NCBI GenBank assembly: GCA_035578025.1
Contig: DATJYJ010000026.1
Coordinates: 6,983 to 70,982 of the forward strand
DNA from: Verrucomicrobiia bacterium
Lineage (GTDB): Bacteria > Acidobacteriota > Terriglobia > Bryobacterales > Bryobacteraceae
Length of the DNA: 64,000 bases
Reading direction: 5' to 3'
The first letter of the stretch is position 1. Every line of letters begins with the position of its first letter. The notes under the pieces are model-generated. The model had not been told where the DNA came from and searched no databases. It saw only the letters and a program-made list of their open reading frames with translations. A program made the position numbers and the translations under genes. This document shows, piece by piece, positions 1 through 14,146 of this stretch.

Positions 1-172
1 GGTGGATTTCGGCGGTCTCGCCATACCCTTCCAGCCCGCGAAACACGGTCGCACCGGCGATCTTCAGCTCCTTGCAGCGATCCACGATCGCCTCGTATAA
101 CGGCTTCCCCCGGTATCGATCGCTCTCGCCAAAGTGCAGTCGGAGAAGTTTGGCTTTCCTAACCGTTCGCAT
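1..172 (-). CDS. DUF190 (PF02641-like) domain protein, N-terminal part only; gene runs off the window start
   Basis: Not in the ORF track because it is cut by the window edge. Reverse translation from the ATG at 172-170 gives MRTVRKAKLLRLHFGESDRYRGKPLYEAIVDRCKELKIAGATVFRGLEGYG. This is the same module type as the two repeats of the upstream ORF. Its start overlaps that ORF's stop by 14 nt. Confidence 0.7.
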   Translation of the reverse strand, partial: MRTVRKAKLLRLHFGESDRYRGKPLYEAIVDRCKELKIAGATVFRGLEGYGETAEIH

Positions 173-884
173 TGGAAGCCTCCGTCGAAGATGGGCTGCG
201 GACCAGCCGGATCACGTCCACATCCGAAAGCACGATGATTCCGTCCTGCATCATGGATTCGACCGCCTCGATCGCCTGCTCCAGCTTCTCTCCCTGGTCC
301 ACCACCGAAATCATCACCGGCAGGTCGTGGGAAAAAGGCAACCGGCCGCTCTTGTGCGTATGGCCCTTGACGCCATAACCGAGGACGCCCCGGTAAACCG
401 TGGCGCCGGCGATGTCCATCAGGCGCAAACGCTTCACCACCGCCTCGTACAACGGCTCGCCCTGCCACTTGTCCGACTCGCCCATATAAATGCGCATCAA
501 TCGCGCCGTGCCCTTCAGTTCCGCGTGGGGAGCCTTGGGCGGCGACGGCCGTTCCTTGTTGGCCACCTTGACCACCTGCGTGTCCTGAACTTCGATCACG
601 CCGTCGGTCACCATCTCGTACAGCGTCGGCATCAGGTCGTTCACCTTCTCGGCTGAGTCGATGAACTCGATGCGGACCGGCAGGTGCTCCGTCAGCACCT
701 CGATCTTCGTCGTGTGCATCACCCGGTGCGCCCCGAATCCAGCCATCGCGCGCGTAGCCGTTGCGCCGGCAATGCCCTTGTGGAGCAGGAACGTCAATAC
801 CGCGTCGGTCAGGGAACCAAAATGGTGTTGCGTGTCCTCGTTGACATAGATCGTGACCTTTTTCGCCACCCCCTTCTGAAGCAT
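159..884 (-). CDS. Tandem two-module DUF190 protein (crcB-associated family)
   Basis: ORF 159..986, trimmed to the ATG at 884 (MLQKGVAKKVTIYVNED), which is preceded by GAGAGGAG. Two repeats contain GIAGATATRAMAGFG and DIAGATVYRGVLGYG. It lies 17 nt downstream of crcB. Confidence 0.85.
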   Translation of the reverse strand: MLQKGVAKKVTIYVNEDTQHHFGSLTDAVLTFLLHKGIAGATATRAMAGFGAHRVMHTTKIEVLTEHLPVRIEFIDSAEKVNDLMPTLYEMVTDGVIEVQDTQVVKVANKERPSPPKAPHAELKGTARLMRIYMGESDKWQGEPLYEAVVKRLRLMDIAGATVYRGVLGYGVKGHTHKSGRLPFSHDLPVMISVVDQGEKLEQAIEAVESMMQDGIIVLSDVDVIRLVRSPSSTEASNANG

Positions 885-901
885 GCCGGCTCCTCTCTCG
901 G

Positions 902-1318
902 TCACCGCCAGGCCAGCATCGCGCCGAGCCAGACGGCCCCGTATCCTAGAATGACACTCGACACGACATTCAGCGCGCCCCTCCAACGCCCGCCTTCCCG
1001 CACCGTCGTGTACGTTTCCCAGGCAAAGCTGGAAAAAGTGGTGTAGCCGCCCAGAAACCCCACCACCAGGAGCAGCCGCCAGTTCGCATCCGCGTGGAGT
1101 CGCTCCGTCAACATGCTCATCATAAAACCGATCAGGAACGACCCGCTGACGTTGATCGCCAGCGTCCCCAGCGGGAATTTTCCGCCGAATCTCCTCATGA
1201 TCGCCGACGCCGCCACGTACCTCGCCAGCGCTCCCCCGCCGCCCCCCACCACAACCAGAAAATAGCGGATCAATTGCTCCGTCCCCGCACTCTCGCGATC
1301 CGCTCCAGGTCGGCGCAC
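902..1318 (-). CDS. crcB: Fluoride ion channel CrcB/FluC
   Basis: Small four-TM protein with GTLAINVSGSFLIGF and GFLGGYTTFSSF, typical of CrcB. The ATG at 1318 overlaps the upstream gene by 49 nt. An in-frame TTG at 1273 (LIRYFLVVV) would abut the upstream stop, so the start is uncertain. Confidence 0.9.
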   Translation of the reverse strand: MRRPGADRESAGTEQLIRYFLVVVGGGGGALARYVAASAIMRRFGGKFPLGTLAINVSGSFLIGFMMSMLTERLHADANWRLLLVVGFLGGYTTFSSFAWETYTTVREGGRWRGALNVVSSVILGYGAVWLGAMLAWR

Positions 1319-2952
1319 AGCTCCGGAATCATCTCGTCGCGCGAGTTTTCGATGAGTCTCTCAACCGTCGCCATCAGCTCGTCCAGCCGCCGCCGCGCCT
1401 CCTTCTCCACATCCCACAGTGCGCTGTTTACGCTCTCCTCCCACTGGCTGCTCAATCGGCTGATGTTCTGATAGACCGCGCGCGGAATCGTCCGCGCAAA
1501 GTGCCGGCGAACCGTGGATCGGATTCCCCACACCGGCAAAACCGGAGAAAGCAGCTCCCAGTTGCGGTCGAAGATCCGGCCCGCGCGGATGTTTGGCGCC
1601 GCCGGCTCCCGGACTGCGATTTCTGTCTCCGTGGTTCGCAGCGGCACGCCGAACGCCCGCACCGTTCGCTCCGACAAGCGGTCCCGGAACTGTTGCAGCG
1701 CGCGGAAGGCCTGTTTCTGGACGTTGCGCAAGGGCTCGATGAACGCTCCCCGCTCTTCCACCGAAATCTCCGTCAGCTCGTTGCGCAGTGCCGCCGTCAG
1801 CCAGTCCTCAAATGAAGACAGCATTCGCGTGAGGCTTGCGGTCCACTCCGGAAAGTGGTTCTCGAAGTCGCGCCTCAGCGACGCCTCCAGTTCCCCCTGG
1901 TAGGTTTCCAGCCGGTCGCTCACCGCCGGACGGGTCCGGGCCGCGGCGTGCTGCACCACCAGCCGCACTTGCGCCTTCACCTCCTCGACGATTTCCTTCT
2001 CACCCAGCACCTGCTGCTTCAGTTCCTGGCGATCCGATTCGACTGCTTCCGCCGATTTCAGACTCAGGCTCAGATATTCGTTGCAGTCGCGCAGCAGCGT
2101 GTCCGTCTTTCGCGCCACGATGGATTCCCGCTCCCCGGCGAAGCGTTCCAGCGTTCCCCTCAGGAGCGTGGCTTCCAGCGCCTGCCTGAAGTGCTCGAAA
2201 CCCGCCTTCGTCGAGTACGGGAACACTTGCGGCGTCTCGGAGAGACGCTTCGCAAGCTGGGTACTGACGAATTCCACGACCTCGGCCAGCTCCGGACCGC
2301 TGAGCAGGTCCGCCTTCGTCAAGAGCACCGCCACCTTCGGCGTGTACTGATAGAGGCCTCTCAGCAGGTCGATGTCGCGCTGCGACAGCGGCGGGTCCAC
2401 GCTGACCGCGACCAGCGCGAGCCCCACGTTGGGAAGCCAGTTCAACGACGCTTGGGTGTTGTGAGTCAACGCGCTCTCCAACCCCGGCGTATCGACAAAC
2501 TTCAGGCCGCGGAAGCGGCGCAGCTCCGGCAGTCGCACCGAGACGAAATCCACCTGCTTGCTGTTCTCGGGATTTTCCCTTTCGGAGATGTACTCGCCGA
2601 TCTCCGACGGCGGAATCTCCCTGGTCTGCCCGTCCGTGTGCCGCACGCAAGCGCCTTCCCGGTCGCCATACCGGATCTCCGTCACCACTGCCGTGACCGG
2701 CACCACACCCACCGGGAGAATGCTCCGCCCGAAGAGGTCGTTCAGGAAGCTGCTCTTGCCTGCCTTGAACCTGCCCAGCACGGCGACGCTGATTTCCTCC
2801 TGTGCGGCCGCGGCCCTGGCCGTCACCAGCAGGCTGCTCAGCGCGGAAATCTCGTACCGCGCCGCAATTTCGGCAGCCAGTTCGAGCGCGGACTCCGAGC
2901 CGGAAAGGATTTCTTCTGATCGTTGTTGCTGGCCTTCTGTCTTCAGAATCAT
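1270..2952 (-). CDS. Bacterial dynamin-like GTPase (dynamin family large GTPase)
   Basis: P-loop GRFKAGKSSFLN, G3 DTPGLES and G4 LTKADLL, followed by a long helical C-terminal region. The start is set at the ATG at 2952 (MILKTEGQQQ). The ORF-track start at 2997 lies inside the riboswitch aptamer. Confidence 0.85.
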   Translation of the reverse strand: MILKTEGQQQRSEEILSGSESALELAAEIAARYEISALSSLLVTARAAAAQEEISVAVLGRFKAGKSSFLNDLFGRSILPVGVVPVTAVVTEIRYGDREGACVRHTDGQTREIPPSEIGEYISERENPENSKQVDFVSVRLPELRRFRGLKFVDTPGLESALTHNTQASLNWLPNVGLALVAVSVDPPLSQRDIDLLRGLYQYTPKVAVLLTKADLLSGPELAEVVEFVSTQLAKRLSETPQVFPYSTKAGFEHFRQALEATLLRGTLERFAGERESIVARKTDTLLRDCNEYLSLSLKSAEAVESDRQELKQQVLGEKEIVEEVKAQVRLVVQHAAARTRPAVSDRLETYQGELEASLRRDFENHFPEWTASLTRMLSSFEDWLTAALRNELTEISVEERGAFIEPLRNVQKQAFRALQQFRDRLSERTVRAFGVPLRTTETEIAVREPAAPNIRAGRIFDRNWELLSPVLPVWGIRSTVRRHFARTIPRAVYQNISRLSSQWEESVNSALWDVEKEARRRLDELMATVERLIENSRDEMIPELCADLERIARVRGRSN

Positions 2953-3024
2953 AGCTCTCGAGCAGTAGGAGCTATCATTCCTGAGCCGGAGGCCCAAGAC
3001 GGTTGATGGCGGGCTCCATCACCA
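2950..3024 (-). promoter_or_regulatory. Fluoride riboswitch (crcB RNA motif), copy 2, with a start-codon-occluding alternative hairpin
   Basis: The minus-strand RNA reads UGGUG AUGGAGCC CGCCA UCAACCG CUUGGGCC UCC GGCUCAGG AAUGAUAGCUCCUAC (3024->2965). P1 is UGGUG/CGCCA. Loop GGAGC is complementary to the 3' GCUCC (pseudoknot). The alternative hairpin AUAGCUC-N11-GAGCUAU (2975-2951) includes the A and U of the ATG at 2952. Confidence 0.8.
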
Positions 3025-3039
3025 ACGTACTAAAGTCTG

Positions 3040-3045
3040 ATTATA
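3040..3045 (-). promoter_or_regulatory. Candidate -10 hexamer for the riboswitch-2 transcript
   Basis: A perfect TATAAT on the minus strand (attata on plus), 15 nt upstream of riboswitch P1. No convincing -35 was found (best is GGTTTG/TTTGTG). Confidence 0.3.
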
Positions 3046-3088
3046 CTCCCTGGTCAGCCCACAAACCGCTGGCTCCAGACTGATTCCG

Positions 3089-4249
3089 CTACTCCGGGAT
3101 CTTCACGCCCATCTCAGCCAGTTTCTTCCGTGCAAACTCGTTTTTTGAATTCTGCTTCAGCGATAACAGGTAATACCGGACCGCCTCCTTCGTGTCGCCT
3201 CGTTTTTCGTAGGCGCGGGCGAGCGCGTCCAGTTGGTTCCACGAAGGCGGATAGGCTGTGCTGTCGTGAAGCAGGACCCTGGACGCCTCCTCCAAGCGTC
3301 CCGCGCCCACCAGGGCCGCGACCACCAGTGAGACCGTGAACCGCGGCGTGGTGCGCTCCGGATAGCCGAATCTCTTGCCCGACTCGCGAAACCGCCTGTG
3401 AATTGCCTCGATGCCGCCCTGATCGAATATCTCCAGCGGATCAGGCAGGCTCCATTCTTCGAAGATGGTCTCCACGCCGTGATAGATGCTCGGCAGCGGA
3501 ATCGACACGTGATTCTCCCGCGGCATCCAGTCGAACTTCCATCGGAATCCTGCGGGAGTTGACGCGGTGATTGCCGCGTGGCACCGGGCAACCTCGCTCG
3601 GAACCCTGCCCGATAGGTCGGTCGCGGCAATGTAGAGATCTGCCTGGAGAGATCCGCTGTGGGCAAAGAACGATTCGGCCTGCGCGACCACCGCCTGGTT
3701 GTTCCAGTACAGGCTGGGATCGGCGGCAATGTATCCGTTGAACAGCTTTGGCTGTGTGAGCAAGGCATAGACTGCGAACAGCCCGCCGAACGAATGGCCG
3801 GCGAGGAGCCGGTAGGGACGCGTGCGATACGTCCGCTCGACGTACGGGATGAGTTCGCCCCCCACAAATGACAGGAAGGCATCCGCTCCGCCGCTGCCCG
3901 GCGAGAAACGGTTGTCCACCTCGGCAGTCGAGGGTGGCGTCAGATCGTGCGTGCGCTTTTGAGAATCACCGCTGGCGATACCGACCACGATCATCGGGGG
4001 GATCCGGTCGGCCGTAGCCAGAAAATCCACGATCGCCGCCGTGTAGCGGAAATGCGTCTCGCCGTCCAGCAGGTACAGAACGGGATACCGGTCCGTGCCG
4101 GCGTCGTATTCGGCAGGCTTGGAAATGAACAGCCTTCGCGATTCCTTCAGGATCTCGGAGCGAAGTTGAATGGTAGTGCCGATGACGACCGGTTCTGCCT
4201 GAGACTGTGCCCGCGGGGCCAACAGTACGAGCAGGAGAGCAAGGCGCAT
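3089..4249 (-). CDS. Exported alpha/beta-hydrolase of the putative-esterase (enterochelin-esterase/IroE-like) family with a C-terminal TPR-like tail
   Basis: Signal peptide MRLALLLVLLAPRAQSQA. YPVLYLLDG and the nucleophile elbow GHSFGG are present. The C-terminus (ALARAYEKRGDTKEAVRYYLLSLKQN) looks TPR-like. Confidence 0.8.
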   Translation of the reverse strand: MRLALLLVLLAPRAQSQAEPVVIGTTIQLRSEILKESRRLFISKPAEYDAGTDRYPVLYLLDGETHFRYTAAIVDFLATADRIPPMIVVGIASGDSQKRTHDLTPPSTAEVDNRFSPGSGGADAFLSFVGGELIPYVERTYRTRPYRLLAGHSFGGLFAVYALLTQPKLFNGYIAADPSLYWNNQAVVAQAESFFAHSGSLQADLYIAATDLSGRVPSEVARCHAAITASTPAGFRWKFDWMPRENHVSIPLPSIYHGVETIFEEWSLPDPLEIFDQGGIEAIHRRFRESGKRFGYPERTTPRFTVSLVVAALVGAGRLEEASRVLLHDSTAYPPSWNQLDALARAYEKRGDTKEAVRYYLLSLKQNSKNEFARKKLAEMGVKIPE

Positions 4250-4276
4250 TGGGCAATCCTCCCGCAAGGAACGCTG

Positions 4277-5077
4277 TCACTCCCTATTGTGCTCCAGTCC
4301 TCCTGAACTGGCGAATTTGATGATCGTGTCGATTCGCAGTGGAGCAAATTTCACATGCCTTCCCGAGACATATTGCGGCTGGCTCGCGAGTCGGCACATT
4401 TCGATGATCTGGCCCGGATTGCCTCCCGCGCTCTCCAGCACTTTTTCCCGGAATTCCGGCAAATCGAGATGCCGCAGCCGGAAATTATCCGCCGCCGTTT
4501 CGAAAAGTTGCCCGGCCTCGCGGCCGTTGAGCCGCGAAACCGTGAGTACCTTCGTGGGATTCCAGAACAGCCTCGCCAGCACGCCCAGGCTCGCCGCGTC
4601 GCGGGAGGTCGCGAACAGCGCCATTCCGGGCGTGTGGTAGATCCGCTGCAGGAACCGGTAGGCGGCGAAACTTCCCCCCGCGATTCCATCGATCACCATC
4701 GCCTGCGGCGCATTCTCGATCGCGCGCCACAACAGGCCCTTCAGGCGAATGCTCCTCTGCGCCCGCAGCCATTCCTCCGAATCGCGGGGAAGTCCGGCGC
4801 GATCGAGGAAATCCCGTTGCTGTGCCGCGATCAGGGCTCGCGCCATCGCCATTAGCAGCGCATGGAGAGTCGGCTCCCAAGCGACGTAAAGAATTTCCGG
4901 CCGCTCCGCCATCGCTTCCCAAAGGAGTCGTGTCTTTCCGCTTCCCGCGGCGCCGAGCACCAGGAGCGGCTCTCGACCGGCCAATGCGCTGCGCAGGCGC
5001 GCGGTCTCCTTGGCCATCCCTACCAGCGCAAATTTCGGATTCATCTGCCTCGCATGGCCGCCCGCGCCCGGCATCAT
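4277..5077 (-). CDS. Compact P-loop AAA ATPase (AAA_16/ORC-like), function unknown
   Basis: Walker A LGAAGSGKTRLL, a Walker-B-like AMVIDGI, and a GGNPGQIIE motif reminiscent of the GNP motif in AAA_16/STAND-type ATPases. The ATG at 5077 is 1 nt from the antiporter stop. An alternative ATG is at 5044. Confidence 0.65.
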   Translation of the reverse strand: MMPGAGGHARQMNPKFALVGMAKETARLRSALAGREPLLVLGAAGSGKTRLLWEAMAERPEILYVAWEPTLHALLMAMARALIAAQQRDFLDRAGLPRDSEEWLRAQRSIRLKGLLWRAIENAPQAMVIDGIAGGSFAAYRFLQRIYHTPGMALFATSRDAASLGVLARLFWNPTKVLTVSRLNGREAGQLFETAADNFRLRHLDLPEFREKVLESAGGNPGQIIEMCRLASQPQYVSGRHVKFAPLRIDTIIKFASSGGLEHNRE

Positions 5078-5078
5078 G

Positions 5079-6281
5079 TCATTCGCTCCCGCCGGCTTCC
5101 TCCACCATCGTCAACCGCCGGACCGCCTCCGGTTTCGGCAGCAGGTGCTTGGGCATGAACCAGGCATTCGCCATCGCTGTTGGCACCACCGCGCTCGCAA
5201 TCACCGTGGCCACCAGGTGAGAGTATTGTCCGTCCGTGATGATCTTGTGGTTCAAGCCGAAAAGCGCGGATATCGTGCCGAAAGTCAGCCCCGTGGACAT
5301 CATCAGCGAGTAATACAGCCCCTGGTGGCCTTCGTGGTCGAACGCGCGGACCGTCGGCACCAGCGGAATCATCTTGGCGCTCATCTTCGCCGCGAACAAC
5401 AGCACGAAGACCATCGGCGTCGCGGCCAGCGCGGGCACGGACACCAGCGACCCCGCCCGGATGAAATAAAACGGCGTCAGCAGCCCGAATGTCAGAGTCC
5501 GCAGCCGGCGCACCAGAATGTGATCCTTCCCGATGGTACCCGCCAGAACCATCCCGATGATGTAAGCCGGCAGCACCGCCTCGCTCCCCGCCCACGCAGC
5601 CAGTCCGCCCATCCCGAAAAGAAGCAGCAGAATATACTTGGCCTCCAGTTCCGAGACGCGCCCTCCGTACTTGCCAAAGAACCAGGGCGTCACAAACGGC
5701 AGCGCCCCGAACACAATCACCGAGGCGCCGGCGAAGATCAGCGTCCGCACCGTGAACGGCGCAAAAATCAGCCCCAGCGCGATCACCGTTCCCAGATCGT
5801 TGACGAAACACGCCGCCAGAATTCCCTTCCCGAAATCGGTCCGATTCAGCCCCAGCTCCAGCATGACCGCGTAGACCACCGCAACCGACGTCGTGGAAAG
5901 TGCCACTCCCGCCAGCCAACTCGCCGGCAGCGACCACTTCAACACGAAATGCGCCAGGGCCGCCGCGCCCATGAAGGGACCGAAGAAGCCAACCAGGCCC
6001 ACGATCATGGCCTCCTTCCACTTCCTGCGGAAGATGCCCGGATCGAGTTCGGCGCCGGCCAGAAAAGTCAGCACGATCGCGCCCGTGCCTGCCAAAAAGC
6101 CGACCCACGCCGATTTTGCGCCGAGCACTTCGGTTCCGATCGCCGCGCCGATGATCAGTTGCGCCACCGTGCCCACCACGATTTCGGAGAGCGCCGTAGA
6201 AATGCGAAACCAGATCGACAACAGCGTCGCGATCAACGCCAGCACCAGCCACAATGCCGCTGAAAACCAGACCTGTTCCAT
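5079..6281 (-). CDS. Cation:proton antiporter (CPA2/Kef-type Na+/H+ or K+/H+ exchanger)
   Basis: 400-aa polytopic membrane protein with the typical N-terminus LSIWFRISTALSEIVVGTVAQL. AAGGAG lies upstream of the ATG at 6281. Confidence 0.9.
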   Translation of the reverse strand: MEQVWFSAALWLVLALIATLLSIWFRISTALSEIVVGTVAQLIIGAAIGTEVLGAKSAWVGFLAGTGAIVLTFLAGAELDPGIFRRKWKEAMIVGLVGFFGPFMGAAALAHFVLKWSLPASWLAGVALSTTSVAVVYAVMLELGLNRTDFGKGILAACFVNDLGTVIALGLIFAPFTVRTLIFAGASVIVFGALPFVTPWFFGKYGGRVSELEAKYILLLLFGMGGLAAWAGSEAVLPAYIIGMVLAGTIGKDHILVRRLRTLTFGLLTPFYFIRAGSLVSVPALAATPMVFVLLFAAKMSAKMIPLVPTVRAFDHEGHQGLYYSLMMSTGLTFGTISALFGLNHKIITDGQYSHLVATVIASAVVPTAMANAWFMPKHLLPKPEAVRRLTMVEEAGGSE

Positions 6282-6308
6282 ACCGGTCTCCTTGATTCGA
6301 ATTTCACC

Positions 6309-7865
6309 TTACCCGCGTTCCCAACCATCGCCTGCAGCCTCCCGCGCGCCGGGCGGCCCGAAGATCCGCCCGTACAGATCCTCTCCGAAGCTCGTCGGCA
6401 GTGGCTCTCCCGGCAGCATGCGAAACGTTCGTTGGCCGTCCGGGAGCCGCTCCGCTCGCAGGAATAGCGCCGTAGCCATGTTGGCCCGCACAAAGCCCCG
6501 CGCCAGGTCGAACAGGTGCGTCACGTAGAACACCTTGACTCCGCTTTCCAGCAGGGCGCGCACGATCTGCCGCGCAATCTCCGAGCCCTCTCTCTCGTTG
6601 GTCGAAGCAAATGATTCGTTGAACAGAACCAGGCTGTCCGCCGTCACCTCGCCGATGATCGAGCTCATCCTGCTCAGCTCTTCGTCCAGCTTGCCGCTCT
6701 TCATCGTCGTGTCTTCCTCGCGCTTGAAATGCGTAAAGACCCCGCGGCACACGTTCGCGCGGAAGTGCTCCGCCGGCACGAACATGCCGCATTGCATCAT
6801 CAGTTGGGCCGCCCCGGCGCTGCGCAGGAACGTCGACTTGCCGCCGCGATTCGCGCCCGTGACCATCACCAGCGCCTTGTCCTCCGCGGCCACGTCGTTG
6901 CCCGCAATCCTGCCGTCCATGCGCAAGGCCAGGCAGGGATCGTACAATCCCCGCGCCGTCAGCACCGCGCGCCCCGGCGCCAATGGTTCCGGAAACGAGA
7001 TCGGTCTGCCGCGCCTCGCAAGCTGCGTGCGCAAGTTCAGGCATCCGGCATAAAACCCGAGCTCCCATCGCAGCCTCTGGAAAAAGCTCAGGATGTGGTC
7101 GGTCGATTGCGAGAGCGCCGCGGCCACGTGGGCGATGCCCCTGTCCTCCAGTTCCGTCAGGGCCCGGAAGCCGCTTTCGTCGCGGTCCGCGATTTCATAG
7201 ATCAGCTCGCGCCCGTTCCCGCCGGTCAATTGGCGCGCCCAGTCCCTCAGCCTTTCCAGCCACGTTCGCCTCGCGATCAGACGTTTGCGAAGCACGTAGT
7301 TTGCGCCTCTGTGACCCGCGCCGAGCTCCGCCGTCATCAGAATCCCGTCGCGCAGTTGGAGACGTTCCAGGTGCTCCCCGGCCAGCGCCAGGTATTCGTC
7401 GTTCAACTCCCCGCTCAGCATCGCAAAGAACCTGGCGAACCCCTCCGATCGGAATTGCGGCCCCTCCTCGTCGGCGATCCTGCGCAGGCGCGCGAGCAGC
7501 TCCAGGAAAATCCCGAGCACTTCCACCGCCCGGTGCAGCGCCGCTCTCGGGCGGTCTCGCGACACCCAGCCCCACACCCGCCTCTCGCGCTCCAGTGCCT
7601 CCACCGCCGTGTCGTAGATTCTCCGCACAACCTCCGGACGCTCCAGGCAATCTTCCAGGATGCCTTGCCGGTAGAGAATGGCCTCCGGTTCCTCCATACT
7701 GCTCAGGAACGCTTGTCTGGCTACGTCGAGAAGGAACTCGTCCCCCGCCGCCATCGCGCCGAACAGAATCTCCAGTTCCAGGTCCTGCGTCAGCGCCGGC
7801 GCGTTGCGGAGCGTCCCGGTCGGCGGCCCGAAATCCCGGTCGCGGTAGAGCAGGAAGACTCTCAT
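6309..7865 (-). CDS. MutS-related ATPase (domains III/V only), paralog B
   Basis: Walker A TGANRGGKSTFLR and a MutS-type Walker B region SLVLFNESFASTNEREG. The start was trimmed to the ATG at 7865 (MRVFLLYRDRDF), which forms an ATGA overlap with the stop of paralog A. Confidence 0.85.
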   Translation of the reverse strand: MRVFLLYRDRDFGPPTGTLRNAPALTQDLELEILFGAMAAGDEFLLDVARQAFLSSMEEPEAILYRQGILEDCLERPEVVRRIYDTAVEALERERRVWGWVSRDRPRAALHRAVEVLGIFLELLARLRRIADEEGPQFRSEGFARFFAMLSGELNDEYLALAGEHLERLQLRDGILMTAELGAGHRGANYVLRKRLIARRTWLERLRDWARQLTGGNGRELIYEIADRDESGFRALTELEDRGIAHVAAALSQSTDHILSFFQRLRWELGFYAGCLNLRTQLARRGRPISFPEPLAPGRAVLTARGLYDPCLALRMDGRIAGNDVAAEDKALVMVTGANRGGKSTFLRSAGAAQLMMQCGMFVPAEHFRANVCRGVFTHFKREEDTTMKSGKLDEELSRMSSIIGEVTADSLVLFNESFASTNEREGSEIARQIVRALLESGVKVFYVTHLFDLARGFVRANMATALFLRAERLPDGQRTFRMLPGEPLPTSFGEDLYGRIFGPPGAREAAGDGWERG

Positions 7866-9487
7866 TCGCCCCGCCCCTCCCCGGCTTCCGGATCGAGACG
7901 CCGTTTGATGCCGTCGTACGTCAGGTTGTATTTCTCCGCGATCGCGATCGCATACGCCAGTCCATCGGCGAGCCGCCGCACAATCCGGAACGTCCGCATC
8001 GCCGGGTCGGCGGGATCGACGGTGCTGACCATGCTGACCGTGGTCGGGCTGAACGACGCCAGTTCGTCCAGGAACGTCACGGAAACGCACAGCATGTCCA
8101 GTTCGACCACCTGCCGCATGATCTCCCTGGTCAGGAACAAGGCATCGTCCAGCGTCGTGGAGAGGAAGCTCTCGTTCATGATCAGAATGCTGTTCGGAGT
8201 CGCGGCTTCCAGAATTCGCCGGATCCTCGTGAGATCCTCCTCCAGCTTGCTGCTCAGCGTCTCAATCGATTCCTCCCGTTCGAAATGTGTGAACAGCCTG
8301 TCGAACAGGAACAGCCTCGCTTCGCTGCCCGGAACGGGACAGCCGATGCTCGCCAGGTGATGCAGTTGGCCGAACATGCGCGCAAACGTCGTTTTCCCGC
8401 CTTGATTCGGCCCGCTGACGATGATGATTCGCTCGGGATCCTCCAGGTGAAAATCGTTCGTCACCACCCGCGCGTCCTCGCGCAGCAGCCGGTTCGCTAG
8501 GGCCAGGTCGAAGACGTCGCGCCCGTAAGCCTCCTTCGAATCCGCGGTCACAGCCGGGTAGCAGAAGCGCAGCCCCGTGCGCGCGAAGCGCTGCACGTGC
8601 TCGTGGCAAGCGAGATAGAACTGCGCCTCCCGGTCGAATTCGGCGATCGTGGCATCCAGGTATCCCCGGTGGCGGTCGCGGAAAGCCTCCAATTCCGCAA
8701 ACACGCCAGGAAACAGGAGCGCCACCCGGTCCAGGATGGCCGCCTCCACGTGGTTCATGTCCGCCGGCGCGCGGATCTCGAACCGATAGTCCTTCGGCGC
8801 GCCCTGCCTGAATTTCTCGAACGTCTGCAAGACTTCCGCCCCGTAGTCCGGCTCGTCGCCGTACCTTCCCACCTTGATTCGCTTGCCCTCGATCTCCAGC
8901 GAATAGGTGACGCCCGCCAGGCCGGCCCTGAGCTTTGCCGTTTCGTCGGCGAGCTCGCGGAACGGCGCCGACGTAGTGTAGTGCTGCAGATACTCGTGAA
9001 ATCCACGCAGTCCCCGGGAGCGCAGGCCGGCCGCCGCCAGCCCGGACGCCAGGCGGATCGCGGCCACGCAGTAGATGTCCACCGCATCCAGAAAGTAGCT
9101 CTGCTTCTGGCGTTCGTAATACAGTTTTTCCGCCTGCGTGAGCAAGGCCCGCATCCTCCGCATTTCCTCGCCGAACCAGCGGATCGGTTCGAGTACGCTT
9201 TTCTCCTCCAGGTCGCGCAGCACCTCCTGTCGATATCGGATCGTCGCGGCGTCGCGCAGCGGCGCACAAAAAAACGGCCTCAGGTTGTACTCCTCACGGC
9301 CAGCCGTGATCGCGTCCACAATCTGATCCAGGTTGAGATCCCGAAAATACTCCGGCGCCTCCGTACGATCGGCCTCCGCGCCCGGTTGCACATCTCCGAA
9401 CAGGATGCTCCGGAAGGATGCCGGATCGCGTCCCGCCAGCGTGGTCGCCTCTTGAGTCAAACGGAATCTGTGTGTATCCGTGTTCAT
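7862..9487 (-). CDS. MutS-related ATPase (domains III/V only), paralog A
   Basis: Walker A SGPNQGGKTTFAR and a Walker B region SILIMNESFLSTT. No N-terminal mismatch-binding motif or Smr/endonuclease tail was recognised. Confidence 0.85.
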   Translation of the reverse strand: MNTDTHRFRLTQEATTLAGRDPASFRSILFGDVQPGAEADRTEAPEYFRDLNLDQIVDAITAGREEYNLRPFFCAPLRDAATIRYRQEVLRDLEEKSVLEPIRWFGEEMRRMRALLTQAEKLYYERQKQSYFLDAVDIYCVAAIRLASGLAAAGLRSRGLRGFHEYLQHYTTSAPFRELADETAKLRAGLAGVTYSLEIEGKRIKVGRYGDEPDYGAEVLQTFEKFRQGAPKDYRFEIRAPADMNHVEAAILDRVALLFPGVFAELEAFRDRHRGYLDATIAEFDREAQFYLACHEHVQRFARTGLRFCYPAVTADSKEAYGRDVFDLALANRLLREDARVVTNDFHLEDPERIIIVSGPNQGGKTTFARMFGQLHHLASIGCPVPGSEARLFLFDRLFTHFEREESIETLSSKLEEDLTRIRRILEAATPNSILIMNESFLSTTLDDALFLTREIMRQVVELDMLCVSVTFLDELASFSPTTVSMVSTVDPADPAMRTFRIVRRLADGLAYAIAIAEKYNLTYDGIKRRLDPEAGEGRGE

Positions 9488-9659
9488 CTGTGGCTAATCC
9501 TTCCACCGCAAACTGCCAGGGATGTCCCTCGCACTCTGCGATGCTGCATCGCGGCGCGCGTCAGGCTGCCGGCGCGGCGTAGGGTTGCCAATGGACAAAG
9601 GACGGGCGAATGTGAGGTTCGAAGGTCTGGAAACCGGATAGATGTTGGGTCACGGCATG

Positions 9660-9731
9660 CTCCTTTCGAGTCGTACTCGTAGGAGTCATCTTCCCCGGGG
9701 ATTGGGGCGGTTGACGGTGGACTCCAACACC
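9660..9731 (-). promoter_or_regulatory. Fluoride riboswitch (crcB RNA motif), copy 1, with an SD-occluding alternative hairpin
   Basis: The minus-strand RNA reads GGUG UUGGAGUC CACC GUCAACCG CCCC AAUCCCC GGGG AAGAUGACUCCUAC (9731->9679). P1 is GGUG/CACC. Loop GGAGUC is complementary to the 3' GACUCC. The tail CUCCUA pairs with AGGAG of AAAGGAG in a hairpin spanning 9685-9660. Confidence 0.75.
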
Positions 9732-9743
9732 ACCTTCAAGGCC

Positions 9744-9773
9744 AGTATCCCAGGACGCTGCGTTGCGTGTCAA
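9744..9773 (-). promoter_or_regulatory. Sigma-70-like promoter for the riboswitch-1 transcript
   Basis: On the minus strand: TTGACA (9773-9768), an 18-nt spacer, then GATACT (9749-9744). The predicted TSS falls a few nt before riboswitch P1 at 9731. Confidence 0.5.
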
Positions 9774-9794
9774 CGCACGTCGTGCAACGTGCTT

Positions 9795-9820
9795 GGCGGA
9801 GTTTTCGATCGTGCTCCGCC
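9795..9820 (-). terminator. Hairpin downstream of the SOD gene (possible terminator)
   Basis: Inverted repeat GGCGGAG-N12-CTCCGCC starting 23 nt after the SOD stop. There is no U-tract, so the call is weak. Confidence 0.3.
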
Positions 9821-9842
9821 GCACACGGACGAGATCGCGCTC

Positions 9843-10529
9843 TCACTTCACGAGTTCTTCGTAGCGCGCGCTGATAAAGTCCCAGTTGATGACGCTCAGG
9901 ATCGCCTTGAGATATTCGGCGCGGCGGTTCTGGTATTTGAGATAGTAGGCGTGCTCCCAGACGTCGATGCCGAGCAGGGGCTGCCGGCCCGACATCAGGG
10001 GGCTGTCCTGGTTGGGTGCGGCGTCGAGCACGAGTTGTTTGCGGGAATCCAGAGAAAGCCACGCCCAGCCGCTCCCGAAAACGCCGGCGGCGTTGGTGCG
10101 CAGTTGCTCCTCGAACCGCTCGCGGCCCCCGAAGGAGCGTTCGAGCGCGGCCGCGAAGCTGCCGGAGGGCTTGCCGCTTTTTGCGGCCGGGCACAGCGTC
10201 TGCCAGAAGAGTGAATGGTTGGCGTGCCCGCCGCCCTGGTTCCTGACCGCGGTGCGAAGGTTGTCGGGCAGCGTGCCCACACCAAGCAGAAGTCGTTCGA
10301 CGGTCAAGCGGGACAGCGTCTCGTCCCCGGCGACGGCTTTGTTCAGGTTGTCCACGTACGCCTGGTGATGCTTGTCGTGGTGGATCTGCATGGTCTGCGC
10401 GTCGATGTAGGGCTCCAGGGCGTCGTACGCGTAAGGGAGCTTGGGCAATGTAAACGGTGGTTCGGCGGCGTCCACCGTGGCGGAGAAGGCGCTCAGGGCA
10501 GCCATCTCCATTAAGGTTCGTCGTGTCAT
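9843..10529 (-). CDS. Fe/Mn-family superoxide dismutase with a twin-arginine signal peptide
   Basis: HHDKHHQAYVDNLN and DVWEHAYYLKYQNRR are hallmark Fe/Mn SOD motifs. The N-terminus [21 protein letters not shown] looks like a TAT signal. The ATG forms an ATGA overlap with the stop of the upstream heme protein. Confidence 0.95.
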   Translation of the reverse strand: MTRRTLMEMAALSAFSATVDAAEPPFTLPKLPYAYDALEPYIDAQTMQIHHDKHHQAYVDNLNKAVAGDETLSRLTVERLLLGVGTLPDNLRTAVRNQGGGHANHSLFWQTLCPAAKSGKPSGSFAAALERSFGGRERFEEQLRTNAAGVFGSGWAWLSLDSRKQLVLDAAPNQDSPLMSGRQPLLGIDVWEHAYYLKYQNRRAEYLKAILSVINWDFISARYEELVK

Positions 10530-12121
10530 TCGAGTACCTCTCTATTCGTTCGAGCAACCGTGCCGTGACCCTCTAGCACGACGAAGTGCCCGGACTGGCC
10601 GTGCCGCACATGGCGCGGCGGCGCCGCCGCGGAATGGACCGCGGGACGCGCGAAGGGATCCGAAAACCGCGGGTCGGTGAGCACCGTCCGGTCGGTCAGC
10701 GCATTCAGAAACGCGAGCAGTTCGCCTTCCTCCTGTCTGCTCAGCTCGAACGGCTTGACGAACTCGCTCTTGTTCGGATTCTCCGCGCCCACCCCGGCAT
10801 TCGGCCCGGATTTGATGGTGCGGCCGCCAGTGCGGTAATGCGATACCACGTCTGCCAGCGTCCGAATGCTGCCATCGTGCATGTACGGCGCGGTCACAGC
10901 GATGTTGCGCAGCGTGGGCGCCTTGAACTTGCCGACATCTTCTTCCTGGTGGGTGAAATCATAGAGCCCGAGGTTGGGGGGCGGATAGGAATACTTCCCA
11001 TTCACGTTGTAGAGGCCGGTATTGTGGAACTCGACCTCGGCGAAGCCCTTGTCCAGGTAGTCCACCGTCCCGGTGAAATTGAAGCCGCCGTGGCAGTGGA
11101 AGCATTCCAGGCGCTCGCTGAAGAATAGCGCCTCGCCGCGCTTCGCCGATTCGGAAATGGCAGCAGGATCGTCGCCGTTGCGGTAGTGATCATACGGCGA
11201 ATCGCCCGAGAGAATGGTGCGTTCGAAGCTGGCGATCGCCTGCGTGACCGAACGAATCGTGAACGGATCGGCCTGCGATGGGAACGCCGCGGCGAAGAGT
11301 TTCCGGTAGCGAGCGTCGCTCTTCAGCCGCCCGATCAGGACATCTTCCTTGCCCGCCATTCCCAGCTCCACCGGGTTCTCGCCGAAGAGCGGCACCAGCG
11401 CCTGCCCTTCCAGCGTACGCACCAGCGGATTGGCCCACGTGAGCACCGGGCTGTACGCCACGTTCACCAGGCTCATCGGTCCGCGAGGGTGAAGTTCACC
11501 GGTAGACCCCAGCCCGCGCGCCCGCCCGTCGCTAAACGCCTTCTCCTGACGGTGACAGGTGGCGCACGCCTGCGTCTGGTTGAGCGAGAGCCGCTTGTCG
11601 TAAAAGAGATACCGGCCCAGTTCCACCTTCTCCGCCGTCATCGGATTGTCCGCGGGAACGTTGGGAAGCGGGAATCCGGGAGGCAGACTCCACTCGTACG
11701 GACCCAGCTTTTCCTTCTCGGCCGCCTTTTGCACAAGCCTGAGGTGGCGGACGTATTGAACCAGTTGCCAGCGCTCAGTCTCGCTAAGTTGATCGCCGAA
11801 AGCCGGCATGTTGCCCGGGATACCGTGGCTGACCACCCAGTAGATCTCGCCGTCGCGCATGGATTCCATAAGGTATTCGGTCAGGTTGGTCGGCCGCACC
11901 GGAAGTTTGGCGGCCGCCGGCGTGCGCCCTTTGCCATCGTCGCCGTGACATCCGGCGCAACGGCGCCCGTAGACAGGCTGCGCGGCGGCAGCCTGCTCCG
12001 CGGTGAAAGCCAACGGAGATTTCAGTAGCCGCGCTTCCGGCGGCGCGCTCGAGTGGCCGTGTGCGTCGTGCGCGTGGCACAGCCCGCCGCCGAAGCAGAA
12101 CAGAAGCGCCAGCTTGTTCAT
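10526..12121 (-). CDS. mbnH: MbnH-like di-heme cytochrome c peroxidase/MauG-family enzyme with an extra N-terminal cytochrome c domain (three CxxCH)
   Basis: Trimmed to the ATG at 12121 ([12 protein letters not shown] signal). CxxCH motifs are CAGCH, CATCH and [27 protein letters not shown] is typical of the CCP/MauG/MbnH family. Confidence 0.8.
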
Positions 12122-12125
12122 ACCC

Positions 12126-12995
12126 TCAGTTCCCGGCCGCCGCAGAGCGCTTGTCATCGGACGCTGCAGCCTTGCGGAAAAAGGACTGCCTGCCGGCCGA
12201 ATGGCCGGCGAAGGGCAGCCCCAGGTTGGCGAATAGCGGCGCGCAATCGCCGTCCTCCGGGCTGGACATGCAACCAAGAGCGGTTTTCGGCTGGTTCGTG
12301 TCGATGTTGGAATCCTTGAGCAGCGCCGCCAGATCCGCCACCACCACGTCGCTCCGCGCGTCGAACCCGGCCAGTTCCACATCCACGCGGTTCGGCTCGC
12401 TGCACTGAACCGGCGGCGCGGTCTTGTTCTCGTTCGGCGTGCAGCCGGTGCTGCCCAGGTGGATCGCGTATCCGCGCGGCTGGCCGGTGCTCGCAAAATC
12501 CAGGCGCGCAAACTTCCGCCCCGCGTTCCACACCCAGGCGAGCGCCGTGAGATTGAGCGGCGGAGGCTGCGTCGTCAGGTCGGTGTGGTTCTTATTGAAA
12601 GGCACGCCAAGAGTGAAGCGGAGGCCCGTATAATGGCCGGCCGGAACCGTGCCCGTGACCCGGTCGTTGACATCCGGGGTGCCGTTTACGCAGCCGCCGG
12701 TGGCGTCTTCGAAATCCAGTAGCGCGACATCGTCCAACTGCCACCTGCCGTCCTGGCTGAACTGGAGCGGAACGCTCTTGCCCGAATCGTCGATCAGCGC
12801 CACGTTGTGCACGTAGAAGCGGAAGTCGCGTGGCGCCAGCGTGGACGCCGTCGTGCCGATTCCAGGGTACGTCCGCCCGCAGGCGAACTTCTCACTGCCA
12901 ACCATCGCTTGAAAACGGACGGTCACCTGCTGGTCGGCCGCCCAAACGCCGCCCTCCGCTGACAGGAGAGCCGCAAGGATCATCGTTAACTTCAT
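12126..12995 (-). CDS. mbnP: MbnP-like periplasmic copper-binding protein (metallo-mystery pair partner)
   Basis: Trimmed to the ATG at 12995 (MKLTMILAALLSAEGGVWA signal). It has conserved-looking Cys pairs and FYVHNVALID and LRFTLGVPF segments as recalled for MbnP/TIGR04052. It sits immediately upstream of the MbnH-like gene (4-nt gap). Confidence 0.7.
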   Translation of the reverse strand: MKLTMILAALLSAEGGVWAADQQVTVRFQAMVGSEKFACGRTYPGIGTTASTLAPRDFRFYVHNVALIDDSGKSVPLQFSQDGRWQLDDVALLDFEDATGGCVNGTPDVNDRVTGTVPAGHYTGLRFTLGVPFNKNHTDLTTQPPPLNLTALAWVWNAGRKFARLDFASTGQPRGYAIHLGSTGCTPNENKTAPPVQCSEPNRVDVELAGFDARSDVVVADLAALLKDSNIDTNQPKTALGCMSSPEDGDCAPLFANLGLPFAGHSAGRQSFFRKAAASDDKRSAAAGN

Positions 12996-13081
12996 AGGAG
13001 GTCTCTTTCGACAAACTGCAATCCAGTCCGCGCGGCGAAATTCCTCGGAATGATGCCTCCGCAGGTCACGCGGTCCTCTTC

Positions 13082-14146
13082 TCACCTCAGGCGGCGAATC
13101 TGCACGGCGCCGTCCTCTTCCCACGCAGCCAGCACCCCGCCGCCAGGCAACGCGGTCAGCGAAGGGAACGCTCCGGCGCTCGAGAGCCGTTCCACCTTGC
13201 CGTCGATCCACACGTCCACGTTCGCCCCCTCGACCCAGGCCACGTACGCGCGCTCGCCGCTGAGAGCAAGCGCCACGTCCTTGCCCGTGCCGATTTGCCG
13301 CTCCGGCCGCCCCGCTTCATCGAGGAAGACGTTGCCTTCGCGCCGCCATGCCGTGACGATCCGCGTCGCCGACACCGCGAGGCCTCCTCCATCCATCGGA
13401 CATGCGTTCAGCGGCCACGTCCCGTTGCCGAGCTTGTGGGGAGCCGGGAAATTCACACCGTCGCGAGACGTCGCCAGGTACAGGTCCCGGCAGCCATTCA
13501 AAGAGTTGCGCCACATCGCCACGAATTCGCCTCCGGGCGAGATCGCCGCCAAAGGATGACAGCACTCGCAGATCGAGCCGCCGGGCGATTCATAGACCTG
13601 GACATTCGCCGCCCACGTGACGCCGCCGTCGCTCGAGCGCGAGGAGTAAAGCCTGGTGCCCTTCCCGCCGCGCTTGTCCAGCCACACCGCAAACAGCGTG
13701 CTCCCGCCATCCGAGGCCAGGCCATGCAGGCCCTCGCTCGCCGAACCCGGGACATCGTTAATCGCCTTGGCGGTCGACCAGGTCGTTCCGCCGTCCTGCG
13801 AGCGCCACACCAGCAGGTCGCCGTCGGCAGGAAGGCCGTGGGCGTGCGCGCCCTCCTGCGGCCGGCTGCCCGCCACCGCGGTAATCACGATCGTGCGTCC
13901 GGACAGCGCGATGCGTGGCCCGCGGTGCCGGCTCAGCGGAACGATCCCCGCCCCGGCAACCTTGGTCGGCGGCGCAAACGTGCTTCCGCCGTCGCGCGAG
14001 GAGCTGAAGTAGATGGCGTTACCCGCTCCGAAAGCCATCGCCACCATCGACGAATTGGCCGCCATCTGCGGTTCGCGCGCCGGCGCCTCCGGACCCATCG
14101 GGCCGAGATGTGCGGCCGCCGCGGCATAAAGAAGTAGCGGAATCAT
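13082..14146 (-). CDS. BNR/Asp-box repeat protein (sialidase-like beta-propeller)
   Basis: Four Asp-boxes: SSRDGGSTF, SQDGGTTW, SSDGGVTW and TSRDGVNF. GGGAGGG lies upstream of the ATG. Confidence 0.8.
   Translation of the reverse strand: MIPLLLYAAAAAHLGPMGPEAPAREPQMAANSSMVAMAFGAGNAIYFSSSRDGGSTFAPPTKVAGAGIVPLSRHRGPRIALSGRTIVITAVAGSRPQEGAHAHGLPADGDLLVWRSQDGGTTWSTAKAINDVPGSASEGLHGLASDGGSTLFAVWLDKRGGKGTRLYSSRSSDGGVTWAANVQVYESPGGSICECCHPLAAISPGGEFVAMWRNSLNGCRDLYLATSRDGVNFPAPHKLGNGTWPLNACPMDGGGLAVSATRIVTAWRREGNVFLDEAGRPERQIGTGKDVALALSGERAYVAWVEGANVDVWIDGKVERLSSAGAFPSLTALPGGGVLAAWEEDGAVQIRRLR

Follow-up and report, generated by a model that had tools for sequence, protein, structure and literature searches.

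The 64,000-nucleotide (nt) stretch analysed here (from contig DATJYJ010000026.1; hereafter the window) opens, at positions 1–9773, with an array of nine tightly packed genes and two fluoride riboswitches, all on the minus strand. In the direction of transcription the order is riboswitch 1, a short leader open reading frame (ORF), MutS4A, MutS4B, a CPA2-type cation/proton antiporter, a small AAA+ ATPase, an esterase-TPR gene, riboswitch 2, a dynamin-like GTPase, the fluoride channel gene crcB, a two-module DUF190 gene (DUF190x2) and a third DUF190 gene with a single module. Re-reading of the coordinates returned the nine co-directional ORFs and tight junctions of a preliminary description of this DNA, and Pfam and NCBIfam profiles uphold its family labels. 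MutS4A and MutS4B share an ATGA overlap (7865–7862), gaps of 27 nt separate MutS4B from the antiporter and the AAA+ gene from the esterase-TPR gene, the dynamin-like gene overlaps crcB by 4 nt, 17 nt lie between crcB and DUF190x2, and the two DUF190 genes overlap by 14 nt. The gap between antiporter and AAA+ gene is 1 nt if the latter starts at 5077; because its homologues are typically 246 amino acids (aa) long, the true start may be the ATG at 5017, which would widen the gap to 61 nt. The spacer between the esterase-TPR gene and riboswitch 2, previously put at about 64 nt, measures 56 nt. In a near-identical contig (L161, 33.5 kb, 99–100% identity) the third DUF190 gene (113 aa) is the last of the array, and a convergent GH10 gene comes after it.

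The upstream aptamer (riboswitch 1, 9740–9673) matches the fluoride riboswitch family RF01734 at 37.9 bits (E = 6.5e-7, whole window), over the Rfam gathering score of 34, and the RF01734-type aptamer of riboswitch 2 (3032–2959) reaches 33.1 bits (E = 4.1e-6, 11-kb search), missing that score by 0.9 bit because of a long P2 loop and a variant pseudoknot. A covariance model built from 20 RF01734 matches (R1) scores the two at 57.6 and 53.1 bits, respectively, and 132 related riboswitches were then aligned. In both aptamers P1 and a 5-bp pseudoknot between P1 loop and 3′ tail form, and P2 keeps three of its four pairs; at the outermost position of P2 both have G/A, like 48 of the 132 relatives. 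Across that alignment, 95.1% of cells over P1, P2 and the pseudoknot are paired and 11 of the 13 pairs vary at both positions, values reached by none of 500 shuffles, nor by slid registers. The fifth pseudoknot pair (21–151) is U-A in 101 relatives and C-G in 30, with riboswitch 2 belonging to the C-G class (loop GGAGC, tail GCUCC). On these structural grounds we treat riboswitch 2 as a genuine member despite its score below the Rfam threshold. The earlier proposal of two riboswitches is therefore borne out, by the Rfam threshold for the first and by fold and covariation for the second. Other RNA matches were discarded: one to flpD at 726–689 (minus strand), inside the DUF190x2 coding region, was judged to be chance (26.6 bits, E = 0.012, where the gathering score is 40), and matches to CPEB3 and HOTTIP were dismissed likewise.

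For comparison we used 160 related loci in two sets: 80 anchored on MutS4B in species-representative genomes (L001–L080) and 80 anchored on the dynamin-like gene in metagenomes (44–73% identity), the latter scanned with a five-sequence alignment, a 24-sequence one being too diverse. Loci with enough upstream sequence are called informative. ORFs of riboswitch-headed chains were clustered, with Pfam run on one representative for ten clusters and the remaining labels read from the sequences. The MutS4B loci span Acidobacteriota, Chloroflexota, Planctomycetota, Firmicutes, metagenome-assembled genomes (MAGs) labelled as delta-proteobacteria and a Bathyarchaeota MAG. R1 detects 204 riboswitches across 1.38 Mb (202 in the 80 MutS4B loci and 2 in the window; mean 2.5 per locus) and 102 in the 0.71 Mb of dynamin-anchored loci. 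Three or more riboswitches occur in 39 of the 80 MutS4-anchored loci; the densest island holds 10 in 22 kb (L054, the maximum), 7–8 are found in L020, L043 and L021, L009 is also dense, and such islands often contain divergent pairs.

Behind riboswitch 2 lies a bacterial dynamin-like GTPase of the IniA/BDLP class (1270–2952, 560 aa; Pfam Dynamin_N, 80.7 bits against a cut-off of 27), with recognizable G1, G3 and G4 motifs (GRFKAGKSS, DTPG and TKAD) and sequence matches in the PDB to IniA (4.9e-15), Cj-DLP and BDLP. Its AlphaFold2 (AF2) model (pLDDT 77.5) is predicted to contain a G domain and long helices (residues 271–434 and 474–559) flanking a non-helical segment (435–473), which holds a partly hydrophobic stretch, WELLSPVLPVW, that is more strongly hydrophobic in relatives. 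Foldseek returns IniA and BDLP at 6.6e-18 over ~580 columns; the TM-scores are low (0.3–0.45), which would fit hinge differences between the model and these structures. The Dynamin_N domain, long helical bundles and hydrophobic tip loop are shared with IniA (6j72), BDLP (2j68/2j69) and Campylobacter DLP1/2 (5owv), but identity in structural alignments is 13–18% and fluoride-riboswitch control sets the protein apart, as does its linkage to CrcB, DUF190 and AAA+ genes, where known dynamins are linked to iniB/iniC or occur as a DLP pair. IniA, for its part, is encoded by a stress-induced gene. A riboswitch heads the chain that holds the dynamin-like gene in 60 of the 63 informative metagenome loci anchored on it (directly behind the riboswitch in 43, after other cassette genes in 17), and the MutS-anchored set adds 38 riboswitch-headed operons with such a gene across 28 loci, the gene coming first in 23.

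The next gene encodes a CrcB/Fluc fluoride channel (902–1273, 123 aa, TTG start), assigned at equivalog level (TIGR00494, 99.1 bits against 80.45; Pfam CRCB, 94.6 against 32.9). It is followed by DUF190x2 (159–884, 241 aa; Pfam DUF190, 205 bits in two stretches) and the third DUF190 gene (1–172, running past the window edge; 62.3 bits on the 57 residues present). DUF190x2 strongly matches PH1503 (2dcl) and TM0021 (1o51), PII-like proteins of the same DUF190/UPF0166 domain; unlike these, the modules here are distributed over a fused two-module gene and a one-module gene, a pair that stays beside crcB in at least 29 loci. Because the pair is conserved, its two-plus-one modules suggest a PII-like pseudo-trimer. 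A co-directional DUF190 neighbour accompanies 27 of the 35 CrcB genes seen. Two further families, each of them giving no Pfam match, were noted in riboswitch operons of the relatives. One, Cys-rich and ~186 aa long, was seen in four loci of Acidobacteriaceae: L007, L012 and L019 have it between CrcB and DUF190x2, and L016, which lacks CrcB, has it between the dynamin-like gene and DUF190x2. The other, of ~150 aa, occurs in eight loci (including L080, 17349–17810).

At the head of the array are two MutS-type ATPases, MutS4A (7862–9487, 541 aa) and MutS4B (6309–7865, 518 aa), whose sole Pfam domain is MutS_V (60.7 and 77.6 bits, respectively); the mismatch-binding domains I and II and an Smr domain were not found in either. 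MutS4B matches the core and ATPase domains of MutS in the PDB, spanning MutS residues ~394–734 only. By domain content and gene overlap the pair fits the MutS4A/MutS4B subfamily of Lin, Nei and Ma (2007), described as adjacent genes in which the stop codon of A overlaps the start of B and as patchily distributed across bacteria and archaea (PMC2190696); the window pair likewise consists of the MutS core/ATPase region only, in adjacent genes with an ATGA stop/start overlap. MutS4 was reported from Thermoanaerobacter (PMC2190696), and our locus set includes a Thermoanaerobacter sp. homologue 55% identical to MutS4B (L045). An exact-sequence look-up with MutS4B gave no match; identity is 99% to L001 (Candidatus Acidiferrales) and 53–67% to the other MutS4B loci, across many phyla. 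Co-directional MutS4A homologues adjoin MutS4B in 73 of the 80 loci, and the pair lies within a riboswitch-headed chain in 60 of the 68 informative ones. Two features go beyond the published account of MutS4, which makes no link to fluoride: this position behind a fluoride riboswitch, and a Walker B motif with N-E in place of the canonical D-E in 113 of the 117 MutS4 proteins of L001–L080, both window paralogues included. The Walker B Asp normally helps to hold Mg2+. It is a speculative thought that the substitution is linked to Mg-fluoride chemistry.

Downstream of the MutS4 pair, the CPA2-type antiporter (5079–6281, 400 aa) comprises the membrane domain alone (Pfam Na_H_Exchanger, 106.6 bits against 26.2), scores 106.5 bits against TIGR00932 (cut-off 238.3) and has no regulatory KTN/RCK domain detectable with Pfam or NCBIfam. 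Orthologues 87–89% identical lie directly behind their own riboswitch in L081, L088, L089 and L153, and CPA2 genes occupy riboswitch-headed operons in 13 MutS-anchored loci, as first gene in 9. The small AAA+ ATPase that follows (4277–5077, 266 aa, or 246 aa from the ATG at 5017) is AAA_16-like, at 28.2 bits against a Pfam cut-off of 32.6. In the AAA+ alignment the Walker A motif GxxGSGKT is invariant, and the Walker B-like position is an invariant D-G; the catalytic Glu is therefore missing, and the protein may serve as a nucleotide-binding switch and not as a motor. A structure search with its AF2 model (pLDDT 77.5) gave generic AAA+ neighbours (best Foldseek matches ORC/Cdc6, TnsC and MuB, TM 0.3–0.4) and no indication of a specific function. 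Riboswitch operons carry the gene in 13 MutS-anchored loci, typically as pyrophosphatase–AAA+(–dynamin) or CPA2–universal stress protein (USP)–AAA+; it is second after pyrophosphatase in eight riboswitch-headed operons and follows CPA2–USP in one. The mapped upstream neighbour of AAA+ in dynamin-anchored loci is a USP or DUF190 gene, and the dynamin-like gene follows AAA+ in 19 of the 38 places where AAA+ occurs.

Among the relatives, the nearest architecture, in L089, reads riboswitch, CPA2 (87% identity), USP, AAA+ (65%), riboswitch, dynamin (72%), CrcB, DUF190x2 and DUF190; L081, L088 and L153 are similar, with an extra divergent riboswitch–dynamin unit, and more distant relatives have a single operon of riboswitch, CPA2, (CrcB), DUF190x2, DUF190, AAA+ and dynamin. 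Since both constituent modules have their own riboswitch in close relatives, the segment from riboswitch 1 to the AAA+ gene appears, on comparison of gene orders, to be a lineage-specific fusion of riboswitch–MutS4A/B with riboswitch–CPA2–USP–AAA+ in which the inner riboswitch and USP were lost. Other riboswitch operons of the relatives encode enolase, inorganic pyrophosphatase, universal stress protein, formate-hydrogenlyase-like subunits and MFS transporters; those with enolase, pyrophosphatase, universal stress protein and formate-hydrogenlyase-like subunits represent the known fluoride regulon (PMC11139923). The preliminary description had raised the question whether the genes of the array co-occur behind such riboswitches elsewhere, and held that a gene order kept in no relative would count against it: homologues of eight of the nine recur behind RF01734-type riboswitches, so gene order is conserved in relatives at the level of modules, although the exact nine-gene order is matched only in near-identical contigs with at least 98% protein identity. 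Two of these are complete (L161 and L162); a third (L001) has the same order but its contig ends after the CPA2 start, and all three are presumably the same species as the window. In other respects the locus itself is an ordinary lineage-specific rearrangement of shared modules. We also noted, in the Candidatus Bathyarchaeota MAG (L071), MutS4A/B (55% identity), a dynamin-like gene, a pyrophosphatase gene and four riboswitch matches, a combination that would fit transfer of the modules between domains.

The ninth gene, the esterase-TPR gene (3089–4249), has a signal-peptide-like N terminus and matches Pfam Esterase (84.6 bits) and TPR. A secreted esterase had been proposed as part of the fluoride response, a role that the comparison does not favour: no homologue occurs in any of the 160 related loci, and orthologues at 70–76% identity lie in three unrelated contexts (beside a GH43 gene, glycosyltransferases and a peptidase), none of which has a riboswitch nearby. 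Because of this distribution we regard the esterase as a lineage-specific passenger, to judge from comparative sequence, inserted between the AAA+ gene and riboswitch 2. Over 3501–4500 the GC skew is close to zero, compared with about -0.1 to -0.25 in flanking blocks. The esterase may nonetheless be co-transcribed with the genes before it.

Candidate promoters precede both riboswitches. Ahead of riboswitch 1 (9744–9773) are TTGACA (9773–9768), an 18-nt spacer with TG, and GATACT (9749–9744), the sole sigma-70-like site within 1–10600; TTGACA-N17/18-GATACT also precedes the riboswitch–MutS4A leader in six acidobacterial relatives (L003, L007, L008, L012, L016 and L019). Riboswitch 2 has a perfect -10 box, TATAAT (3040–3045), 22 nt upstream of its P1. 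Among 38 orthologous riboswitch–dynamin leaders, 26 keep TATAAT 19–22 nt upstream of P1 and three more have TATACT, while the flanks diverge; L089, in which the AAA+ stop codon lies only 28 nt from the riboswitch, also has TATAAT. Several of the 38 leaders are preceded by divergent genes, so transcription must start at those leaders. The intergenic gaps of the array contain no terminator-like hairpin, in agreement with the preliminary description; 12 weak terminator-like sites all fall inside coding regions, in line with a chance expectation of 8.5 ± 3.1, and the spacer between esterase and riboswitch 2 folds no better than shuffled sequence.

The expression platforms of the two riboswitches differ in what they cover. 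That of riboswitch 1 (9561–9665) consists of a Shine-Dalgarno sequence, AAGGAG (9665–9660), and a 30-codon leader ORF with a GTG start (9653–9561); in the ligand-free fold the aptamer tail CUCCU (9685–9681) pairs with AGGAG (9664–9660). The sequestered Shine-Dalgarno sequence serves the leader ORF and not MutS4A, whose ATG lies 186 nt beyond the aptamer, 73 nt after the leader ORF. C-rich and G-poor (C/G = 2.06, the 99th percentile of 93-nt segments in the window), the leader ORF is probably translated. Acidobacteriaceae relatives have an ORF at the leader position in L004 (8893–9212), L007 (8948–9260) and L010 (8922–9218), of ~52–65 codons and starting MPA or VPA, that overlaps the MutS4A ATG in the same relative frame in all three. 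In the platform of riboswitch 2 (2950–2975), the ligand-free minimum-free-energy fold pairs the tail AUAGCUC (2975–2969) with GAGCUAU (2957–2951), a stretch that takes in a Shine-Dalgarno-like GAG as well as the A and U of the dynamin start codon AUG (2952–2950). This helix is kept with compensatory changes in orthologous leaders (for example, L110 and L113). Platforms vary among riboswitch–dynamin leaders, close relatives sequestering the Shine-Dalgarno/AUG region and distant ones carrying a terminator hairpin with a U-tract; leaders compared with the window platform include L117, L119, L125 and L131. Because both tails pair with downstream ribosome-binding regions in the ligand-free folds, both riboswitches look like translational ON switches.

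We interpret the region as a fluoride-response island of two adjacent co-directional operons, each with its own promoter and a fluoride riboswitch acting as a translational ON switch, and assign this reading a probability of about 70%. Unit 1 would run from the TTGACA/GATACT promoter through riboswitch 1, the leader ORF, MutS4A, MutS4B, CPA2, AAA+ and esterase; unit 2, a widely conserved cassette, from the TATAAT box through riboswitch 2, the dynamin-like gene, CrcB, DUF190x2 and DUF190. Without fluoride, the 3′ pseudoknot strand of the aptamer is predicted to pair with the downstream ribosome-binding site, as folding indicates for both riboswitches and covariation additionally for riboswitch 2; with fluoride bound, and by the known mechanism of the family, the strand would be locked in the pseudoknot and the ribosome-binding site freed. 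In unit 2 this would directly allow translation of the dynamin-like gene, with the overlapping or close downstream genes following by coupling. In unit 1 the C-rich leader ORF would be translated, probably blocking Rho-dependent termination or opening the leader for MutS4A and later genes. CrcB exports fluoride, and CPA2 could counter the drop in pH that HF entry brings; the DUF190 modules, three in all, probably form the PII-like pseudo-trimer and regulate or assist the channel; the dynamin-like GTPase and its AAA+ partner probably maintain or remodel the membrane under fluoride or acid stress; and the MutS4A/B heterodimer may have an ATP-dependent part in the response. Of the earlier suggestion that fluoride co-induces unit 1, the riboswitch-controlled array stands; the platform, which serves the leader ORF rather than MutS4A, and the passenger esterase depart from it.

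Several points weigh against this interpretation. Riboswitch 2 lies 0.9 bit below the Rfam gathering score, and its -10 box has no recognizable -35; because the -35 is missing and no terminator separates the units, read-through from unit 1 into unit 2 is possible. The leader peptide sequence is not conserved among relatives, about half of the riboswitch–MutS4A cases have the riboswitch abutting MutS4A directly, and the leader-ORF/Rho step is read solely from sequence composition and position. The dynamin-like, AAA+, DUF190 and MutS4 proteins owe their proposed roles to guilt by association, and, because the loci were anchored on two genes of the array, co-occurrence of the other modules is biased upward.

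Read-through in its fullest form would be a single polycistronic mRNA of ~9.8 kb starting at 9740, with riboswitch 2 as the nested internal checkpoint, gating the channel module alone, that the preliminary description had envisaged. The co-directional genes, their tiny gaps and the lack of a terminator between esterase and riboswitch 2 would suit such a transcript; the 28 nt between the AAA+ stop and the riboswitch in L089 leave little space for regulatory DNA, and a translational riboswitch would function within a longer mRNA too. We nevertheless think it unlikely, since TATAAT is held at a fixed distance in 26 of the 38 leaders while the flanks diverge, including leaders that follow divergent genes, which most likely makes unit 2 an operon of its own, and since the two modules are usually separate in relatives, each with its own riboswitch. 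Separation of another kind, within unit 1, is less probable still: riboswitch 1 might control the leader ORF alone, or be a relic, with a promoter or ribosome-binding site within the 186-nt leader serving MutS4A/B, CPA2 and AAA+ regardless of fluoride. MutS4A does have a Shine-Dalgarno-like GAAGGA of its own and starts that far from the aptamer, and the sequestered Shine-Dalgarno sequence belongs to the leader ORF; yet the promoter–riboswitch–MutS4A arrangement is conserved, in 21 of 45 cases no more than 27 nt separate the riboswitch from MutS4A, the leader yielded no second promoter-like site, and the C-rich leader fits polarity control. The patchy distribution of MutS4, resembling horizontal transfer (PMC2190696), also raises the prospect that the dynamin-like and AAA+ genes, and the MutS4 pair, are an anti-phage or mobile-element module that merely sits beside fluoride genes. 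A PADLOC scan gave the dynamin-like protein weak, partial matches to components of the 'Dynamins' defence system, LeoA (residues 8–95, 1.7e-8) and LeoBC (1.1e-7), and gave none for MutS4A, MutS4B, AAA+ or DUF190x2. We rejected this explanation, which we consider highly improbable: the genes are headed by fluoride riboswitches in 88–95% of informative loci, which argues for regulation and not mere proximity.

How far the two-operon island departs from known fluoride systems can be judged from the literature. A 2010 report placed the crcB motif ahead of mutS, of transporters for K+ or Cl- and of formate hydrogenlyase (PMC2864571; PMC7266159), and Na+/H+ antiporters are described as second in frequency among riboswitch-associated classes, with pyrophosphatase, enolase and others behind them (PMC11139923). 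The island shares with the RF01734 regulon its aptamer class, crcB, mutS-like genes and Na+/H+ antiporters, and the neighbouring operons of relatives share enolase, pyrophosphatase, universal stress protein and formate hydrogenlyase; unlike the regulon described there, it has the dynamin-like GTPase, the small AAA+ protein and DUF190 as regular members. The GI3 operon of Enterobacter cloacae FRM (ppaC-uspA-eno-gpmA-crcB-orf5249), six genes behind one fluoride riboswitch dissected experimentally (PMC5533749), is likewise multigene and is induced by fluoride, combines the channel with stress or metabolic genes and is an experimental precedent for the co-induction of many genes by a single riboswitch. 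The genes that accompany its channel encode enzymes inhibited by fluoride, and it lacks MutS4, CPA2, dynamin-like, AAA+ and DUF190 genes, whereas the window has two riboswitches. The claim that the array goes well beyond known cassettes was therefore overstated. Earlier papers had put mutS and ion transporters (PMC2864571), Na+/H+ antiporters (PMC11139923), the MutS4 pair (PMC2190696) and a six-gene operon (PMC5533749) on record, and because mutS, Na+/H+ antiporters and a multigene riboswitch operon had been published, half of the 'unexpected' gene content is already known. No paper linking dynamin-like, AAA+ or DUF190 genes to fluoride riboswitches appeared in open-access full text or in the first 200 of the 438 supplement files of Weinberg 2010 (Baker 2012 lies outside this scope), so we provisionally regard the riboswitch–dynamin link as unreported.

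Co-directional genes carry on upstream of 9773. On the minus strand at 9843–14146 lie genes for a BNR-repeat protein, an MbnP-family protein, a di-haem cytochrome c peroxidase (MauG-like) and an Fe/Mn superoxide dismutase, the superoxide dismutase start overlapping the peroxidase stop codon; the group resembles an operon concerned with oxidative stress or metals, and 70 nt separate its end from the promoter of riboswitch 1. On the plus strand of 1–9773, five of the longest ORFs had no match in Pfam, and we took them for antisense artefacts arising in G+C-rich DNA. Taxonomic labels conflict: a protein identical to the dynamin-like GTPase is labelled Verrucomicrobiae bacterium (NCBI), and the 99%-identical L001 is labelled Candidatus Acidiferrales (Acidobacteriota), probably a binning or labelling issue.

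Fluoride toxicity restricts microbial life in acidic soils, and the best-known defences besides exporters are a few fluoride-inhibited enzymes, phosphatases and ion transporters. Many carriers of the modules described here are soil and peat microbes. Fluoride toxicity also hampers the engineering of organofluorine (per- and polyfluoroalkyl substance, PFAS) degradation (PMC11139923). The comparison brings out three families, each without an experimentally established fluoride role, that are almost always riboswitch-controlled: MutS4A/B, the dynamin-like GTPase with its AAA+ partner, and DUF190. Across many phyla they appear near-obligately under fluoride riboswitches. We tentatively propose, with more reserve than for the operon structure, that the dynamin-like GTPase and AAA+ partner, the two-plus-one DUF190 assembly and MutS4A/B with its Walker B N-E make up a conserved arm of the fluoride response, one for which we found no published account, under near-obligate riboswitch control in Acidobacteriota, Chloroflexota, Planctomycetota, Firmicutes, Desulfobacterota-like bacteria and at least one archaeon. 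The comparative result points to membrane remodelling within fluoride defence; if this holds, fluoride tolerance in acidic soils and peat would need active membrane maintenance and specialized P-loop NTPases besides export. The MutS4, DUF190 and AAA+ families, together with this dynamin subfamily, gain from the comparison a concrete, testable physiological trigger.

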